Below are positions 56,002 to 64,000 of a stretch of 64,000 bases of DNA, piece after piece. Numbering within the stretch: the first letter of the stretch is position 1; each line of letters starts with the position of its first letter. The notes below the pieces were generated by a model. It was not told the origin of the DNA. It saw only the letters and a program-made list of their open reading frames with translations, and made no database searches. Both the position numbers and the translations under genes were made by a program. Source of the DNA: an uncultured Armatimonadia bacterium (lineage in GTDB: Bacteria; Armatimonadota; Zipacnadia; CAVVLO01); assembly GCA_963749155.1 (NCBI GenBank), contig CAVVLO010000003.1, positions 615,773 through 679,772 of the forward strand, read 5' to 3'.

Positions 56002-57289
56002 CTAATTCAGCCTGCTGATATCAATGCCGCCGAAGACAAAGTAATCAGGATTCTGATGCACAAAGTCGGCATACAAGAGGTCCAGAAATACTGACTGGAC
56101 ACGCATCCCAGTATGGGTGTCCACCGGTGTTACCGAGCTCTGATTCGGCGCATTTACGGTAAGTATGGCAACAAAACCGGGAGGATTGGTAGCCAGAGTC
56201 AGAGGTAAAACCCGGGAGGTCTGGCTCCAGGTCTCAAAGGCTCGCAGTTGGAAGGAGAAAAGCGTCTTGCGCCATTCGCCAAGGTGGTCTGCAGTGAAAA
56301 GTCCCGCAGAATCAGCCAGCCGGAATCTGAGGACATAGGTGCCAGGACCAGGGGGAAGCTCTAGTACGGCACTCAGCAGCGTAAAGTCACTTTGATCGTA
56401 AGCAGAAACATTCAGCCTGGCCAGTCCCATTGCCTGTTCCTTCACAAATCCTGGCCCCTGCGCCACTATGACCTTCCGCGAATATATGGTGGCGATTGAA
56501 TACTGATGCTCGCCAAGCACATAACTGGGAGGTTCTGACCAGAGGCGCAGTCTGAAGCCGGATTTCCAGTCGATTTCGGCTGCGGATTCGGGCACTTTCG
56601 GAGCCCGCACGTGGACGGCGTCGTCGCTTGGCGGTGGAGGCGTCTGGTCTATCGGACCGGAAAGTGGCACTGTAGCGCCTGTCGGGCCTGGCTTTCAGCA
56701 GGGCCAGAGTAGCCTCAAGATTGATTGGCATCGTCAGCTTTGCCATCAGCTCGGGCACAATCGGTCCAGGCAGCGGCATTGGAGTCGCCCCAGCCAAAAG
56801 AGTGCCCGGTTCGAGCATCTGAACCACCAGCGTGGGCGACTCAGGGCCGGGCAGTTGGATGGGCGTAGCCGGGGCTACGACAGGGGCAATTACCAGGCCG
56901 GGCTGGAACCCTCCCTGAAGCTGCCCTACCGACGTAACCGGTAGTTGGCCAGCTGCGCTTACCTTCAGGGTGTATTTCACGCCCTTCCTGGCCTGGAAGC
57001 TGAGACTGGCTGGGTTGCCCTCCTGCACAAGAGGACCCAACCCCTCACCTGTGAGGCTTAGCCTGAGTCCCACTACAGAGCCCCAGGACGCAGCAAAAGT
57101 GTAGGGATTGTCTTCGGCTGCGGTAAATTCGTAAGTGAAGGCTGGCCCACCCGGCTCCAGGGTGAACTCACGAAGCATCACAAGATTTGCCTGGGCGGTC
57201 TGACCAACAACACTTTGAGGCAGAGACAGCAGGGCAAAGAGGCACAGCAGGAAGACCAAATACACTGAGGTAAGTCCGAGTCGCTTCAT
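56002..57289 (-). CDS. Secreted hypothetical protein, paralog A; apparent frameshift near 56670
   Basis: Signal peptide, beta-sandwich, Pro-rich linker; the two ORF halves align with 57403..58701. Confidence 0.82.
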
Positions 57290-58737
57290 CTGGAACGCCT
57301 CCTGGCGTCACGGAGTGTGGGCGAAACCAAACAGCCAGAGGGCCAGACTTGGCCTCCCTCTGTCAGATCAAGCAGCCTTCCCGCCAGCGCGGGCCAGGAC
57401 GTCTAGTACAGCCTCATGATATCCAGCCCCCCGAACACGATGGGGGACTCGGGCCAAGGGCTGAAGTATCCCCAGACACTTGGATTGCGTCGCAGCACCA
57501 GCATGATAGACTCCGCTCGCATCCCTGGAGTGACCTGCCCTGGGGCCTGAGTGGGCAAGGCCTGAGGGGAGACATTGATTACACCGACAAAGCCCGGAGG
57601 CGTGGTCGAGACCGTGAGAGGCACATAATAATCATCTAGGTCCCCCCAGAGCTCCAGGGCGATGAGCGAAATAGCGGGCTTCTCACCGGTGATCCAGGAG
57701 GGGCTAATTGTTCCCTTACTGTCCAGTAAACGAAACCTGACGACGTAGGTCGCGGGCTCGGGAGGAAGCTCGATCAAGGCGTATAACAGGTCGAGGCAAT
57801 CTTCCGGCGAGTGGTTGATGCTGAGCTGGGCTACGCCTTTGGCCTGCTGATTGGCGAAATCGATCTGGTCTATGAAGACATATGAGGAGTACATATTGCC
57901 AACGTAATAGCTCTTCCCCCCCATCCAGTAGGAAGAGGGTTCCTTCCAGAAGCGCAATTGGATGCCACTCTTCCAGTCGAGGCTGCCAATTGTGCTTATA
58001 GCGCTGACGGCCCCGACCTGCTGGCCGCCATCTCCAAGGCTAACGCCTGCCTGGGGCTGCTCGATGGGGCCTGAGAGCAACACTGTGGATTGCGTCGGAT
58101 CTGCCTTTAACAGCGCGACGGCTGCCTCGAGGTTAGTTGACATCGTTAACCTGGCGATCAGGTCGGGCGACACAGGTGCCGGCAGCGGCATTGGAGTCGC
58201 CCCAGCCAAAAGAGTGCCCGGTTCGAGCATCTGAACCACCAGCGTGGGCGACTCAGGGCCGGGCAGTTGGATGGGCGTAGCCGGGGCTACGACAGGGGCA
58301 ATTACCAGGCCGGGCTGGAACCCTCCCTGAAGCTGCCCTACCGACGTGACAGGCAGTTGGCCAGCCGCGCTTACCTTGAGGGTGTATTTCACACCCTTCC
58401 TGGCCTGGAAGCTGAGACTGGCTGGATTGCCCTCCTGCACAAGAGGACCCAACCCCTCACCTGTGAGGCTTAGCCTGAGTCCCACTACAGAGCCCCAGGA
58501 CGCAGCAAAAGTGTAGGGATTGTCTTCGGCTGCGGTAAATTCGTAAGTGAAGGCTGGCCCGCCTGGCTCCAGGGTGAACTCACGAAGCATCACAAGATTT
58601 GCCTGGGCGGTCTGACCAATAACATTTTGAGGCAGGGACAGCAGGGCAAAGAGGCACAGCAGAAAGACCAAATACACTGAGGTAAGTCCGAGTCGCTTCA
58701 TCTGGAACGCCTCCTGGCGTCACGGAGTGTGGGCGAA
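56769..58737 (-). repeat. 557-bp direct repeat: 56769-57325 and 58181-58737
   Basis: 13 mismatches by eye, 11 synonymous; covers UTR, RBS and first ~174 codons. Confidence 0.95.
57403..58701 (-). CDS. Secreted hypothetical protein, paralog B
   Basis: 432 aa, RBS AGGAGG, signal peptide. Confidence 0.85.
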   Translation of the reverse strand: MKRLGLTSVYLVFLLCLFALLSLPQNVIGQTAQANLVMLREFTLEPGGPAFTYEFTAAEDNPYTFAASWGSVVGLRLSLTGEGLGPLVQEGNPASLSFQARKGVKYTLKVSAAGQLPVTSVGQLQGGFQPGLVIAPVVAPATPIQLPGPESPTLVVQMLEPGTLLAGATPMPLPAPVSPDLIARLTMSTNLEAAVALLKADPTQSTVLLSGPIEQPQAGVSLGDGGQQVGAVSAISTIGSLDWKSGIQLRFWKEPSSYWMGGKSYYVGNMYSSYVFIDQIDFANQQAKGVAQLSINHSPEDCLDLLYALIELPPEPATYVVRFRLLDSKGTISPSWITGEKPAISLIALELWGDLDDYYVPLTVSTTPPGFVGVINVSPQALPTQAPGQVTPGMRAESIMLVLRRNPSVWGYFSPWPESPIVFGGLDIMRLY

Positions 58738-59461: not shown

Positions 59462-60727
59462 ATGAAACTCACTTGCATTGCTTTGGGCTCGCGTGGAGAT
59501 GTCCAGCCCTATCTGGCGCTCGGAGTCGGCCTGCAGGCAGCCGGTTTCGATTATACGCTGGTGTCGCATACCAGAGTTCGCTCCGCTTGCGCGCGAGCAT
59601 GGCCTTGGAGTTCCACTCGGCAGGGGGCGACCCCAAAGCGCTGATGGAGACTGACCTTGCCCAGACGATGCTGGCAAGTGGCGGCAATCCCTTAAGATTT
59701 ATGAAGCTACTCGCAGAGCTGGCCGAACCTGTCTTCGAGTGCGCTGTCACGGAAGCCATCAGAGCCTGCGAGGAAGCCGACGGGATTATCTACTCCAATA
59801 TCGGCGTGTTCGCCCATCGGCTCGCGCAGCCGCCCCTCCCCTATTGTTCGGTGATGCTGCAGCCTTTCACGCCCACGAGCCAGTTCGCCAGTGCCTTCTT
59901 CCCCAGCCTGCCTGCCAGCGCGCCTATTGGAGAGGGCCTGTATAATCGCCTCACCCATCAGGCTTTCCTTGCCATATTCTGGCATTGCTTCGGCCGCCCC
60001 TTCCTTAAGCTGCAACGCGAGCGCGGACTGCGTTTGCCGACCCGCTCCGAGAGCTGGCAGGCGCGCAAACACCTGATTTGTTATGCCTATAGCCCATCCT
60101 TGATACCCAGGCCGAACGACTGGCCGGCGAATATCCACGTGCCCGGGGTATCTCTACCTCCCAGAGCCGCCTGGCTGGGAGCCTCCCCCGGCCCTGACAG
60201 ATTTCCTGGCCTCAGGCCCAGCGCCCGTCTATGTGGGATTCGGCAGTATGCGTAGCGAGCGCCCCGCCGAGACAGCCGAACTGGTGCTGGAGGCGCTGCG
60301 CCGGACAGGTTTGCGGGGTGTTTTACATCGCGGTTGGGGCGGCGTGGAGCCTGCCGATGTGCCTGACAGCGTGTTGCTGGTGGAATCGGTGCCCCATTAC
60401 TGGTTACTGCCCAGGATGGCCGCTGTCGTGCATCACGGGGGAGCTGGCACTACGGCAGCCGGCCTGCGCGCGGGGGTGCCCTCGGTGCTGGTGCCTCATT
60501 TTGCCGACCAGCCTTTCTGGGGAAGGACGGTCTTCCAGGCGGGAGCCGGCCCTCAACCCATCCAGCGCAAGCGACTCTCAGTCAGGCGGCTCACCGAAGC
60601 CTTGCGCCAGGCGACCACTGATGGAGACCTCAGGCAGCGCGCTGCGGTGCTCGGCGCGCGCATCCGGGCTGAACAGGGCGTCGAGGAGACAGTCAGGCTG
60701 ATCGCCAGGGAGTTCCGCGCGAAGTGA
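59462..60727 (+). CDS. GT1 glycosyltransferase (sterol glucosyltransferase-like); apparent frameshifts near 59570 and 60150
   Basis: GSRGDVQPYLAL, VGFGSM, VPH.WL.P, HHGGAGTT, ADQPFWG. Confidence 0.92.
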
Positions 60728-60775
60728 GCTTGCCCCCGCGAGCCACCCCTCTACTCCTGTGGCGCCTGCCGCGAA

Positions 60776-60810
60776 CCAAAACCGGGGGTGCAGGGGCAGA
60801 TTGCCCCTGC
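60776..60810. repeat. REP-like palindrome at the edge of the RHS array
   Basis: CCAAAACCGGGGGTGCAGGGGC-AGATT-GCCCCTGC. Confidence 0.75.
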
Positions 60811-60819
60811 GATCTTCCG

Positions 60820-60890
60820 GCGTTGTAAGTGGAGGTCGTCACCGCGCTCCCCTGGTCGGTAAGAGTCAGCCTGTTGCCGATGTCGTCATA
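60820..60890 (-). pseudogene. 71-bp RHS core remnant
   Basis: Near-identical to 62847-62917, encodes YDDIGNRLTLTDQGSAVTTSTYN. Confidence 0.9.
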
Positions 60891-61059
60891 CTTCCATCAT
60901 ATCACTTGTCGGCCGGGGCGCTGGGAAAGTAGCTTCAGCCCCAGGGGCTTTCCACCTGCGGGATACACCTGGCTTCATCGGCCCAGCGGGCAAGCGAGAG
61001 CGCCCCGAAGAGGAACCGGAAGTTCTACGCGCCCACCTTGCGACCTGGTGACGCCAGTA

Positions 61060-61536
61060 TCAACTGGTCGGGACCTCGGCCGACATCGTACATCCGTGCG
61101 GCACCAGCTTGCCGCCGACGAATGCCCCCAGAAAGGCAGCCCCCCCGCACCAAAAGACGCTGGCAAGCACTACCGCCATACCGAGAAGTGCATGGGCTGG
61201 GGAGGCGATGTGCCGCCACTGGCCAAAAACCGTTAGCAGCACGGTAGCTTCGCAGGCGATAAGCGCCACTGTCACCAGTCCATGCAGACGCCATCGCCTT
61301 CCGACCAGCAGGACGGTCACCAACCCTCTCAGGAAAAACGCGAGGACCGGGACGCCCAGGCCTACGAGAAAGGGCAAGTCCCCGGGTGATACGCCAAGGG
61401 GAGCCAGGATGTAAGCCGACGCAAGCAGCGTCCCAACGGGGATGCCGACCCCTGCGCAGTATGCTGCTGGTATCCGTAACCACGGCGTTAGCTCGTACCA
61501 GTTTGAACGCTGCTCACTCAGTTGCTCGTGTCCCAT
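61060..61536 (-). CDS. Multi-pass membrane protein, putative immunity protein
   Basis: About four hydrophobic segments; downstream of RHS C-terminus; AAGGA upstream. Confidence 0.65.
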   Translation of the reverse strand: MGHEQLSEQRSNWYELTPWLRIPAAYCAGVGIPVGTLLASAYILAPLGVSPGDLPFLVGLGVPVLAFFLRGLVTVLLVGRRWRLHGLVTVALIACEATVLLTVFGQWRHIASPAHALLGMAVVLASVFWCGGAAFLGAFVGGKLVPHGCTMSAEVPTS

Positions 61537-61734
61537 GCTACCATCCTTACCGCGCGGGGCTGCTCCCTGACCAACCGGGCAGGCAGCAGGTACACGTGAC
61601 TGCGGTTTGTAGACAGCCTCACCAGCCAGATCCTGACTTGCTCGTAGCGCTCTGCTACCTGTCGGCTACCGCAGCCACGCGCGACTGAGCCGCCCCGAGT
61701 CGTGCGGCTGCCGCAGACGCCCGCAGCAGCTCGG

Positions 61735-63019
61735 TTACCCCTGTGGATCCCAGTATGGAAGCGGCGGAGAGGGAAGGTGGAGCATCAGCAGCAGTCCCGG
61801 GGGCTCGATCCAGCCCCTACTACACGCCCTCAAGCATGGGGCGACCGAGGAAGCAAATACGAGCCACGGCATCAGTCTCCCAATCACCCTAAGAACATTA
61901 ACCGCTTCCCCCGCTAGCCGCCTGATGTAGTCCACGAGACTCAGACGCTCAATGAGCGGTTGGGCGGCGTAGGACCCAGTGCAAGACGCAACAATTGACA
62001 AAAGATGTGCGGCGATCTGGTCCCGCAACGCGCCGCACGGCCCCGGCGCAAATCCAGTGAGGACGCAGGACGCAAGGCAAGCAATGTACCCGACTCCGCG
62101 GGCGAAACGATCGAAGGTCTCATCGACAAGGTCCTCCATCCACGCGTTGACATCAAGCTGCCACCCGCTAGGCATCGACATTGCTCACCGGCCCATTGGC
62201 GCAGTACAGGTACCGGTGCAGGCTCATCGGGTCCTGCGGTGAGCCGCCGTAGGGGTCTTCCGAGATGAATCGGCCGAGGCCCGGGCTGTAGTATCTGGCC
62301 TGCATAAAGTAGAGGCTCGGGGTGCTCTCCCACTGGACCCCGTACCCGCCGACGAAGAGGTAAGGGTTGGCGACGTCGCTCTGGCCGACCGTCGCCTGCC
62401 CGAAGGCCTCGTAGCTGTAGCTGTTCTCGACGGCCTGGGAGCTGTCCACCACCTGCTTCACGCTCGCCAGTCCGTCGAGCAGGTAGTCGTAGCTGGCCCC
62501 ATCGCGCCTCTGGCTGAGGAGGTCACTGTAGAGCGAGCCGCCCTCGTGGGTGTAGCGCACCTGGGTCTCATCGTCGCCGTCGCGCTCCAGCACGACCTTC
62601 GCCCCATCGTAGGCGAACCTGGTCGTCGTCCCGCCCTCAACCTTCGTCAGCCGCTGGCCGGCGGAGTTGTAGGTGTAGTTGGTCTCGGAAGAGTCTGGAT
62701 ACTCGATGTCGGTAAGCCTGTCGTCGTAGTCCCAGGTGTAGGAGCGCGTCCCGGCGCTCGTGACCTCGGCGGCGAGATTGCCCGAGGCGTCGTAGGTGAA
62801 GGTCGTCAGCGTCCCGGAGGCATCCGTCCCGATCAACTGCCCACCTGCGTTGTAAGTGGAGGTCGTCACCGCGCTCCCCTGGTCGGTAAGAGTCAGCCGA
62901 TTGCCGATGTCATCGTAAGTGTAGCTGTAGCTGTATTGTACCGCACTTCCCGAATCGCGGAGCACCGTGCCAGGCGCACCACCCGATGCTGGTTCGGGGC
63001 AAGCCCAGGCCGGCGTCAT
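61735..63019 (-). CDS. Orphan RHS/YD-repeat core with C-terminal putative toxin domain; apparent frameshift near 62175
   Basis: YD..GN repeats, YSYEAFG, ARYYSPGLGRFISEDP, YLYCANGPV; removing one G restores VDPSGW; 3' end uncertain. Confidence 0.88.
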
Positions 63020-63067
63020 GTCTCGTCCCTACTGCGCCTATCTCGGAGGAGCACGTCAAGTAGCAGA

Positions 63068-63601
63068 CTAGGTGCTCAGACAGGTCGCCGCCAAGACGAG
63101 GCCGGCAGGTGGTACCGACGGTCCCGCGAGCAGGAGCCCGCAGCCAAATAGCACCCACCTGACCTGTTTTGCCAGATTCACACGCCCCTCCAGTCGATGG
63201 AATGGGAAGAGGAATGCAGCACCGGTACCGGGGATAGGCCCAGCGATCAGTCCGACCGAAGCAGAGAGCAACGCCATGGCGAGCAGGAGCCGGTCCGAAG
63301 ACAAGGTGTGCGCTTCAGCCTCAATGGCTAGTGGGACTAACACAACGGCCATCAGCGGTACTGCCCAGGCGAACAGACTGAACTCCCATCCCTCCGCCGT
63401 CAACGTGTGGGGCCTGCTCCAGTAGAGTCCTTGCTCCCCCCACATCAGAGCCGAGGACACGGTGCAGAAGCCAACAAGCGCAACGCGCCTTGCGGTGGCA
63501 ACGTTGCGTCCGCGTACGATGGCGCTCCCGCGCGCCTCGCTCAGAATCCCATGTATACGTCGCATATGTCTGCGCAGTGCACGGCGCTCCACCCGGTCCA
63601 A
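63068..63601 (-). CDS. Multi-pass membrane protein, putative immunity protein
   Basis: About four hydrophobic segments directly after the upstream RHS tip; true start unclear (probably near 63520-63570). Confidence 0.55.
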   Translation of the reverse strand: MDRVERRALRRHMRRIHGILSEARGSAIVRGRNVATARRVALVGFCTVSSALMWGEQGLYWSRPHTLTAEGWEFSLFAWAVPLMAVVLVPLAIEAEAHTLSSDRLLLAMALLSASVGLIAGPIPGTGAAFLFPFHRLEGRVNLAKQVRWVLFGCGLLLAGPSVPPAGLVLAATCLST

Positions 63602-64000
63602 AACGTCGTTAGTACCGCCAGTGGCGCTGCCACGTATAGTCGAGCACCCAGCACGTTCTTGGAGCTGAAGCCATGGACTATCTTGGCGCTGATGGGCTTC
63701 AGGTTCGCCCCAAGCCGGATCGCTATTGGTCTCAGATCACGGTACCACCACAAGATTGGCACATGTGCCGTCAGTTCAGGGAAGAGACCGGCCAGGTTGA
63801 CCGGCACCTGCCACAGAGCAGCTTCGGTAGTACGGCACTCTGGGGTCCAACCCCATGCGAGACACTTGACTACACACGTCGTGTGGCTCCACCATCCCGA
63901 CCATGTCTCCCTGCGCCAGAACCAGTACCAGCCATGCTCCGGCCCTCCTAGGTCCCAGAAGCGCCAGGACAATAGCCCCTCTGCATCCATCCTGCTCACT
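63541..64000 (-). CDS. C-terminal tip of an RHS protein entering from outside the window
   Basis: Begins VSRMDAEGL, equivalent to the PVSNVDPSG cleavage motif; Cys pattern shared with the downstream tip. Confidence 0.75.
   Translation of the reverse strand, partial: VSRMDAEGLLSWRFWDLGGPEHGWYWFWRRETWSGWWSHTTCVVKCLAWGWTPECRTTEAALWQVPVNLAGLFPELTAHVPILWWYRDLRPIAIRLGANLKPISAKIVHGFSSKNVLGARLYVAAPLAVLTTFWTGWSAVHCADICDVYMGF

Follow-up and report, generated by a model that had tools for sequence, protein, structure and literature searches.

Rearrangement hotspot (RHS) loci are among the main sources of new antibacterial toxin folds, and characterised RHS tips that are non-enzymatic and directed at membranes are few. 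Among the described systems closest to the one considered here are the orphan rhs cassettes of enterobacterial rhs loci, which lie downstream of the main gene and in which core homology serves as a recombination handle. Pore-forming colicins are matched by immunity proteins with three to four transmembrane (TM) helices, and the Pseudomonas aeruginosa toxin Tse5, in which glycine zippers abound, is countered by a membrane immunity protein. Tse5, also named RhsP1, has been described as an RHS C-terminal pore-forming toxin (PMC9637101, PMC10684867). Here we report on positions 60817-64000 of a 64,000-nucleotide window, the whole stretch of DNA analysed, from an uncultured Armatimonadia bacterium (G000:C3:615773-679772). 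We read this region as the distal portion of a locus for RHS polymorphic toxins, in which a first tip and its membrane gene (tip1 and mem1) are followed by an orphan cassette of RHS core, tip2 and mem2, with the core out of frame with its tip, and finally by a core remnant; the tips would be non-enzymatic, membrane-perturbing helical domains, each with a cognate immunity protein of four TM helices. To this reading as a whole we give an even chance.

Judged by its sequence features, this is an RHS locus of the ordinary kind, complete with orphan cassettes. All of its elements lie on the minus strand. The array opens with tip1 (63541-63999; 152 codons plus stop, 152 aa), an RHS C-terminal tip that begins at a PVxxxDxxG junction and whose end is overlapped by mem1 (63068-63601), a candidate immunity gene for tip1 encoding about four TM helices and a basic N-terminus. 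The orphan RHS core that follows (62168-63019; 283 aa) lacks an N-terminal or secretion part and carries YD (RHS) repeats (PF05593, E 8.1e-13; TIGR01643, 43.7 bits) and a Rhs_assc_core domain (TIGR03696, 57.2 bits, cut-off 32.5). It is 5'-truncated and homologous to full-length genes elsewhere in the genome, of 1377 aa on contig C1 and about 1260 aa on contig C4, and its protein is about 92-93% identical to core ends on those two contigs; further RHS arrays of the genome lie on C1, C4, C5 and C6. Next come tip2 (61735-62181; 148 codons plus stop), an RHS tip, and mem2 (61060-61536; 158 aa, about four TM helices), its candidate immunity gene. The array ends distally, beside the 3' end of a convergent gene, in a 74-nt core remnant (60817-60890) that is 93% identical to 62844-62917, the 5' edge of the orphan core. 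The initial annotation had listed the same elements in the same order, and all of them are present, but what it called a core plus tip2 is not one open frame, the two being offset by one base.

By its motif, the predicted cleavage junction is of the RHS type, D-x-x-G. It reads PVSNVDA in the orphan core and VSRMDAEG at the start of tip1 (VSRMDAEGLL), and the same PVxxxD-x-x-G junction as at the tip1 start ends eleven other cores of the genome, with a genome-wide pattern of D-[A/P/V]-x-G. The DPxG cleavage motif expected by the initial annotation is thus present as a junction but takes the local form D-[A/P]-x-G rather than strict DPxG. The arrangement resembles that of enterobacterial orphan cassettes in its 5'-truncated core with the last YD repeats and Rhs core, whose homology would serve as a recombination handle, the variable tip past D-x-x-G, the small gene downstream and the remnants at the array end. 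It differs from them in that the genome has no TssC, the full-length RHS proteins bear Sec-like signals, and the core/tip2 junction is out of frame.

Both window tips carry a bracket of five cysteines, CxxxC-x8/9-C followed by a second CxxxC, just as had been described from the letters of the sequence. In tip1 the motifs are CVVKCLAWGWTPEC and CADIC (C42, C46, C55, C142 and C146), and in tip2 they are CLASCVLTGFAPGPC and CLRAC (C35, C39, C49, C116 and C120). All five bracket cysteines are invariant in 4 of 4 aligned sequences, namely tip1, tip2, a third tip of the same genome (tip3) and the metagenomic protein P0002; tip2 and P0002 share 31% identity overall and keep all five, and a sixth cysteine of tip2, at residue 67, is not conserved. 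The layout is beyond chance: across the 2037 long open reading frames (ORFs) of the genome, CxxxC occurs 0.29 times per 1000 aa and cysteine makes up 1.3% of residues, and each tip of roughly 150 aa has two CxxxC motifs. When tip1 was shuffled and realigned, five aligned cysteine columns were obtained in none of 300 trials, and shuffling tip3 gave them in 1 of 300. Tryptophan content is also high (15 W in tip1, 11 in tip3).

The remaining invariant positions of the four-sequence alignment are G43, L60, L103 and P105; His, Asp, Glu, Lys, Arg and Ser do not figure among them. Because no polar residue is invariant in the four tips, an enzyme is argued against. The initial annotation had seen no nuclease, deaminase or ADP-ribosyltransferase motif, and searches of Pfam, NCBIfam and PDB sequences gave no similarity to an enzyme family. 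At E<=1, Pfam and NCBIfam returned no family for the tips and nothing for the membrane ORFs, and a profile search of PDB sequences matched neither the tips (best E 0.54) nor the membrane ORFs; no characterised toxin family was matched by the tips in any of the three.

Two further sequences carry the same bracket. The first is tip3 (L001:5683-6150, contig C1, minus strand), an orphan tip with CMLSC-x9-C and CDDKC that is followed by mem3, a 199-aa membrane ORF. The second is P0002, a 142-aa protein from a metagenome assembly and the sole external relative found; in P0003, a longer member of the P0002 cluster, the tip continues, in the same frame, an RHS core end nearly identical to that of the window. 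P0002 and P0003 are encoded on contigs of 1173-1666 nt. Pairs were compared by local-alignment score against 500 shuffles, and we give Z together with the number of shuffles reaching the score. By this measure tip2 resembles P0002 strongly (Z 32, 0/500), tip3 resembles P0002 (Z 6.3, 0/500) and tip2 resembles tip3 (Z 4.45, 2/500); hhalign places the tip2/P0002 profile at E 4.7e-5 against tip3. The Trp-rich N-termini of tip1 and tip3 align (BLASTP E 0.011), and a truncated tip1-like N-terminus stands in frame with a core at C4:128026. Since tip3 resembles tip2 and P0002, and mem3 resembles mem1, tip3 forms a bridge between tip1 and tip2. We therefore read tip1, tip2 and tip3 as one predicted family in which the link to tip1 is indirect, and, judged from sequence databases, these tips and their metagenomic relative probably make up a small, lineage-restricted and undescribed family.

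The initial annotation had called the window's two downstream ORFs membrane genes, and mem1, mem2 and mem3 are multi-pass membrane proteins with three to five hydrophobic segments each; in the public protein collection mem1 is P0007, a 174-aa form whose start would be at 63592. Mem1 and mem3 are similar (Z 7.85, 0/500) over nearly the entire length of both; BLASTP with composition adjustment, a weaker measure than the shuffle test, gives E 0.017. Their common motifs (G.Q..YW.R.H and LFPF) sit between hydrophobic segments and, given the very basic N-terminus, would lie on the periplasmic side. For tip1 and tip3, tips and partners appear to co-vary, as the homologous mem1 and mem3 follow them.

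Membrane partners recur across the genome. For six of the seven other tips that look complete (C1-970431, C4+130716, C5+527792, C5+532236, C6+55246 and C6-58653), the longest listed downstream ORF has at least one hydrophobic segment, the range running from single-anchor to seven-segment polytopic proteins. The seventh is tip3, for which the automated listing gave the next orphan core and mem3 was identified by reading. Four short or truncated tips have no clear partner listed, one of them being followed by a 77-aa ORF with one hydrophobic segment. Such genome-wide membrane partners fit toxins whose site of action is the envelope and not the cytoplasm, and mem1, mem2 and mem3 are probably immunity proteins that protect the producer.

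For the toxicity and target of the tips, their action on membranes, the immunity function and the chemistry of the bracket, we infer the following course. The RHS protein would be exported by Sec, with no type VI secretion system (T6SS) involved, and the tip would be freed at the D-x-x-G junction and reach the envelope of a neighbouring cell. There, acting from the periplasmic side, it would perturb the cytoplasmic membrane of the target, either as a pore former or by depolarising it, and within the producer's own membrane the cognate downstream four-TM protein would neutralise it. The five-cysteine bracket would tie the helix of the first CxxxC to the last helix, through two disulfides or a cysteine-ligated metal, in a manner comparable to twin-CX3C helical hairpins. 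The genome is compatible with the first of these steps: its full-length RHS proteins open with a Sec-like signal, behind which lie a weak match to DUF6531 and 17 matches to RHS repeats, and no TssC match was found in the genome, which is scored 100% complete.

Tse5 is the functional model that we propose for these tips, as an RHS-carried C-terminal fragment that acts on the target membrane non-enzymatically. The likeness ends there, since the tips and Tse5 share no Pfam or NCBIfam family, Tse5 is delivered by a T6SS and this genome lacks TssC, and the tips have modest hydrophobicity, a five-cysteine bracket and no Tse5-like glycine-zipper pattern. Pore-forming colicins offer a second parallel, combining a soluble-looking helical toxin domain with a small immunity protein, polytopic in the inner membrane and about 110-180 aa long. 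They differ from the tips in delivery and in having no cysteine bracket, and no sequence match or reliable fold match to the tips was found.

The family appears to be very rare. When 1.84 billion representative proteins were searched with a profile, two came up at E<=0.001, tip2 itself and P0002, and a word-seeded search of 5.8 billion protein clusters gave no further relative: the family alignment recovered P0002 and two proteins of the genome itself among 1301 candidates, and a tip1 search for longer proteins recovered 0 of 470. For the membrane ORFs no relatives outside the genome were found, the three own proteins standing alone among 8000 scored. Contigs were equally barren, as 481 stretches of JGI metagenome contigs and 117 of GTDB genome contigs matched a tip-alignment pattern and none was confirmed, nor were any of the 133 stretches that matched the pattern for tip1 alone. 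No tip relative was found in 401 genomes of the phylum or in the 41 nearest genomes, none of which is closer than the same class (442 genomes in total with the phylum set), and 80 RHS loci from other organisms held none either (best foreign E 0.96). Clustering at 50% identity can hide tips that are attached to conserved cores, and tip3 itself was not returned from the search of 1.84 billion proteins; rarity is therefore to be read as a lower bound on the number of members. Two weak foreign matches from the phylum search, G090 (E 0.0026) and G101 (E 0.0074), were rejected when they failed the family profile (L007 at E 1.7; L008 unlisted). Separately, none of the GTDB species representatives searched is related to the genome itself at the level of family or order.

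A number of observations weigh against our reading, and we take them together with the alternatives on which they bear. The first group concerns the kinship of the tips. Tip1 and tip2 are not detectably similar when compared directly (Z 0.34, 184/500), tip1 and tip3 are so only weakly (Z 1.96, 25/500), tip1 and P0002 give Z -0.54, and hhalign places tip1 at E 0.37 against the tip2/P0002 profile; the remark in the initial annotation that the tips share little sequence is borne out. Although tip2 resembles tip3, mem2 has no detectable similarity to mem1 (Z 1.27, 66/500) or to mem3 (Z -0.4, 315/500), and the conservation of the cysteines is drawn from four sequences with a single external relative. 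Tip1 and tip2 might accordingly be unrelated toxins on which the cysteine layout is a convergent, stabilising habit of this lineage's RHS tips. The bridge through tip3 and mem3, the aligned N-termini of tip1 and tip3, and the absence of five aligned cysteines from every tip1 shuffle speak against this, and we consider such convergence unlikely.

The case for convergence is helped by other RHS tips that carry CxxxC motifs. Three tips of the same genome match DUF6973 (PF22322) at E 3.9e-7 to 1.4e-4, the best at 30.1 bits (cut-off 27): L001:8979-9599 (minus strand), L001:3154-3711 (plus strand) and L002:6717-7169 (plus strand). These carry H-C-x-W-x-C-x9-C and a later CxxxC, with invariant H, HE and D..N residues, and their homologous members likewise pair with homologous downstream genes, each encoding a single-anchor protein with a soluble domain. 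In the paper library searched, no paper that mentions DUF6973 was found. The tips of our family share with them the CxxxC-x9-C ... CxxxC layout, the RHS carrier and the genome, and they could in principle be DUF6973 domains so diverged that the His and Glu residues of the motif are gone, an idea encouraged by the best local hhalign alignment, which falls exactly on CxxxC-x9-C, and by the C-terminal CxxxC present in both. That comparison is, however, non-significant (four-tip family against the genome's DUF6973 tips, E 0.58, probability 0.1%), the tips have no Pfam match to DUF6973 at E<=1 and none of its invariant H, HE and D..N residues, and the partners are polytopic rather than single-anchor with a soluble domain. 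We regard this derivation as highly improbable.

Cysteine-rich tips extend beyond this genome. The two foreign cores closest to that of the window (L017 and L018, 51-52% identity) bear tips of 108-116 aa (L017:5625-6002 and L018:5523-5924, both plus strand) with 13 Cys and 4-6 CxxxC motifs each, without the full bracket layout. Across the 80 foreign loci the junction pattern matched 17 times, in 15 of the loci; two or three of these matches fall within repeat regions and are not real tips. In the 15 matches besides L017 and L018, cysteine is scarce, CxxxC is absent and the full layout occurs in none; among them, the tips of other phyla are nearly devoid of cysteine. As CxxxC is thus found in unrelated tips, in full layout in DUF6973 and in part in L017 and L018, it may be a habit of the lineage and not a functional signature. 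To us CxxxC stapling looks like a habit of this RHS lineage, spread over different predicted toxin types. As a side observation, the L017 tip is followed by a signal-bearing 397-aa protein.

A second group of observations concerns the membrane action that our reading assigns to the tips. They are only mildly hydrophobic (grand average of hydropathy, GRAVY, 0.16-0.41), have 0-1 GxxxG motifs each and show no glycine-zipper pattern. By Kyte-Doolittle with a 19-aa window and a threshold of 1.5, no segment of tip1 reaches TM grade, a single one of tip2 is borderline (residues 99-117, score 1.51) and lies directly before its last CxxxC, and only tip3 has a clear one, in the same position. The hydrophobic helical middle of the initial annotation was therefore overstated: the stretch is weak and adjoins the last CxxxC rather than filling the middle. 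Structure prediction adds little. AlphaFold2 (AF2) gave a mean predicted local distance difference test (pLDDT) of 43.8 for tip1, which is unusable, and 57.3 for tip2, so that there is no reliable structure; as a hint only, the low-confidence tip2 model consists of helices throughout and scores best in the blocks that hold the two CxxxC helices (pLDDT 73 and 77). Foldseek with that model against PDB was uninformative (33 rows at E<=10, none at E<=0.001, best E 3.6), the ESM Atlas held no usable match for tip1 and a best score of 0.85 for the P0003 tip, below a meaningful level, and complex prediction for tip1 with mem1 scored 0.00, which is no answer and speaks neither for nor against binding.

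These properties leave room for tips that form no pores but bind or modify a membrane-embedded target, such as the lipid-carrier cycle, a transporter or an assembly machine, with a partner that masks the target or sequesters the toxin. In keeping with this, the tips resemble amphipathic helical bundles more than hydrophobic hairpins, tip1 having no TM-grade segment and none a glycine-zipper pattern; the immunity candidates are membrane proteins all the same, and the motifs common to mem1 and mem3 fall in predicted loops, on a topology taken from the basic N-terminus. Against this mode, the four members have no invariant polar or catalytic residue, and no similarity to an enzyme family was found. 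Overall we think a target-binding mode rather improbable.

The membrane-perturbing reading is also challenged by the state of the locus itself. The frames of core and tip2 overlap over 14 nt (62168-62181, minus strand) with an offset of one base: the core frame stops at 62168-62170, inside the junction motif, and the tip2 frame is shifted by one base. With tip2 out of frame with its core, the cassette may be dead. In the metagenomic relative P0003, core end and tip are in one frame. Public metagenome contigs (4 runs) cover the core region and none bridges 62168-62181; at 62182/62183, by the junction, one contig in X1 and one in X4 diverge from the window, and a few exact 151-nt metagenome pieces map to the tip2 end, to mem1 and over the stretch where tip1 and mem1 overlap. 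The offset may be a frame break or an assembly error in repeats.

The stretch might be a graveyard of decayed, silent RHS cassettes with no present function. Besides the frame break and the 74-nt remnant, this would account for a degraded tip3/mem3 duplicate at G000:C1:963812-964600 (plus strand), which an in-frame TGA interrupts and in which fragments of the two genes fall into different frames, and for the main RHS gene on C4 (L003:9192-12810, plus strand; G000:C4 about 155.2-158.8 kb), which is frame-broken too, with a frame change near L003:11908-12068. No sigma-70-like promoter was found in 60600-64000, although the test is weak. Against decay, no stop interrupts tip1, mem1, tip2 or mem2, their GC content by codon position is coding-like (GC1>GC2<GC3), the cysteines are kept at 31% identity, and frame breaks in repeats may be assembly errors. 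Silence is, moreover, the normal state of orphan cassettes, which act as stores for recombination into the main gene. We rate a graveyard as somewhat unlikely.

The chemistry of the bracket bears on the last point against us. Twin-CX3C hairpins, found in small Tim proteins and plant alpha-hairpinins, are antiparallel with two disulfides, and reduced small Tims can bind zinc. The tips resemble them in having two CxxxC motifs, each on a predicted helix of the low-confidence model, and differ in the spacing of the motifs (75-96 residues against about 10-15) and in the fifth conserved cysteine. No DsbA, DsbB, VKOR, Thioredoxin_4 or COX1 match was found in this genome of 100% scored completeness, which does encode a DsbD/CcdA-type membrane protein and, since Omp85 is present, has an outer membrane. 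With DsbA, DsbB, VKOR, Thioredoxin_4 and COX1 all missing, the disulfide version is weakened; the missing Dsb enzymes and COX1 tip the balance in favour of metal binding, or of an oxidation that takes place only once the tip is released. The possibly undescribed membrane-active family put forward by the initial annotation thus stands as far as the lack of a known family and the conservation of the five cysteines go, and disulfide stapling is not favoured over metal.

In a bolder extension of our reading, the bracket would act as a switch, set by redox state or by metal, on a new fold of membrane toxin carried by a Sec-exported, T6SS-independent RHS protein of an apparently anaerobic diderm without Dsb enzymes. 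The tip would be inert while reduced or metal-bound, in the producer and within the RHS shell, and would lock into its active helical form only after release into the target envelope. On that view, RHS tips throughout this lineage would be built with CxxxC stapling as a rule, since its DUF6973 tips (in the same layout) and those of L017 and L018 have CxxxC motifs too. This is a long shot.

What the locus offers is a natural experiment: three paralogous pairs of tip and candidate immunity gene in one genome, with 20-30% identity between tips, five fixed cysteines and no candidate catalytic residue. The family is tiny, being limited to one genome and one metagenomic cluster among the billions of proteins searched. 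In a poorly sampled lineage without T6SS and Dsb machinery, RHS toxins repeatedly bear cysteine-rich tips with CxxxC, which raises the question of how such toxins fold and are delivered. Should the tips be inactive or the cassettes dead, they would amount only to one more uncharacterised RHS tip.

The setting of the array deserves brief description. Base 64000 of the window is the end of contig C3, and since the contig stops there, tip1 is severed from its own core, which is lost. Contigs C4 and C1 likewise terminate within RHS cores, and the assembly thus breaks at RHS repeats; the full-length C4 RHS gene runs off its contig end within the junction (...CANGP). Joining the C4 end to the C3 end was considered and rejected, as no contig ends overlap and direct abutment puts tip1 out of frame. 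On C5, two orphan tips (L004:2793-3194 and L004:7237-7641, both plus strand) each have two hydrophobic segments and 8-9 Cys and no significant Pfam match (weak E of 0.013-0.068 for one, none for the other); the first is followed by a lipoprotein-like 393-aa protein and the second by a 178-aa protein with two TM segments. Elsewhere in the window, 56002-58701 (minus strand) holds tandem paralogous genes for secreted proteins, of which 57403-58701 is intact (432 aa) and the second is split into the ORFs 56387-57289 and 56002-670, with a frame change after a near-identical N-terminal half.

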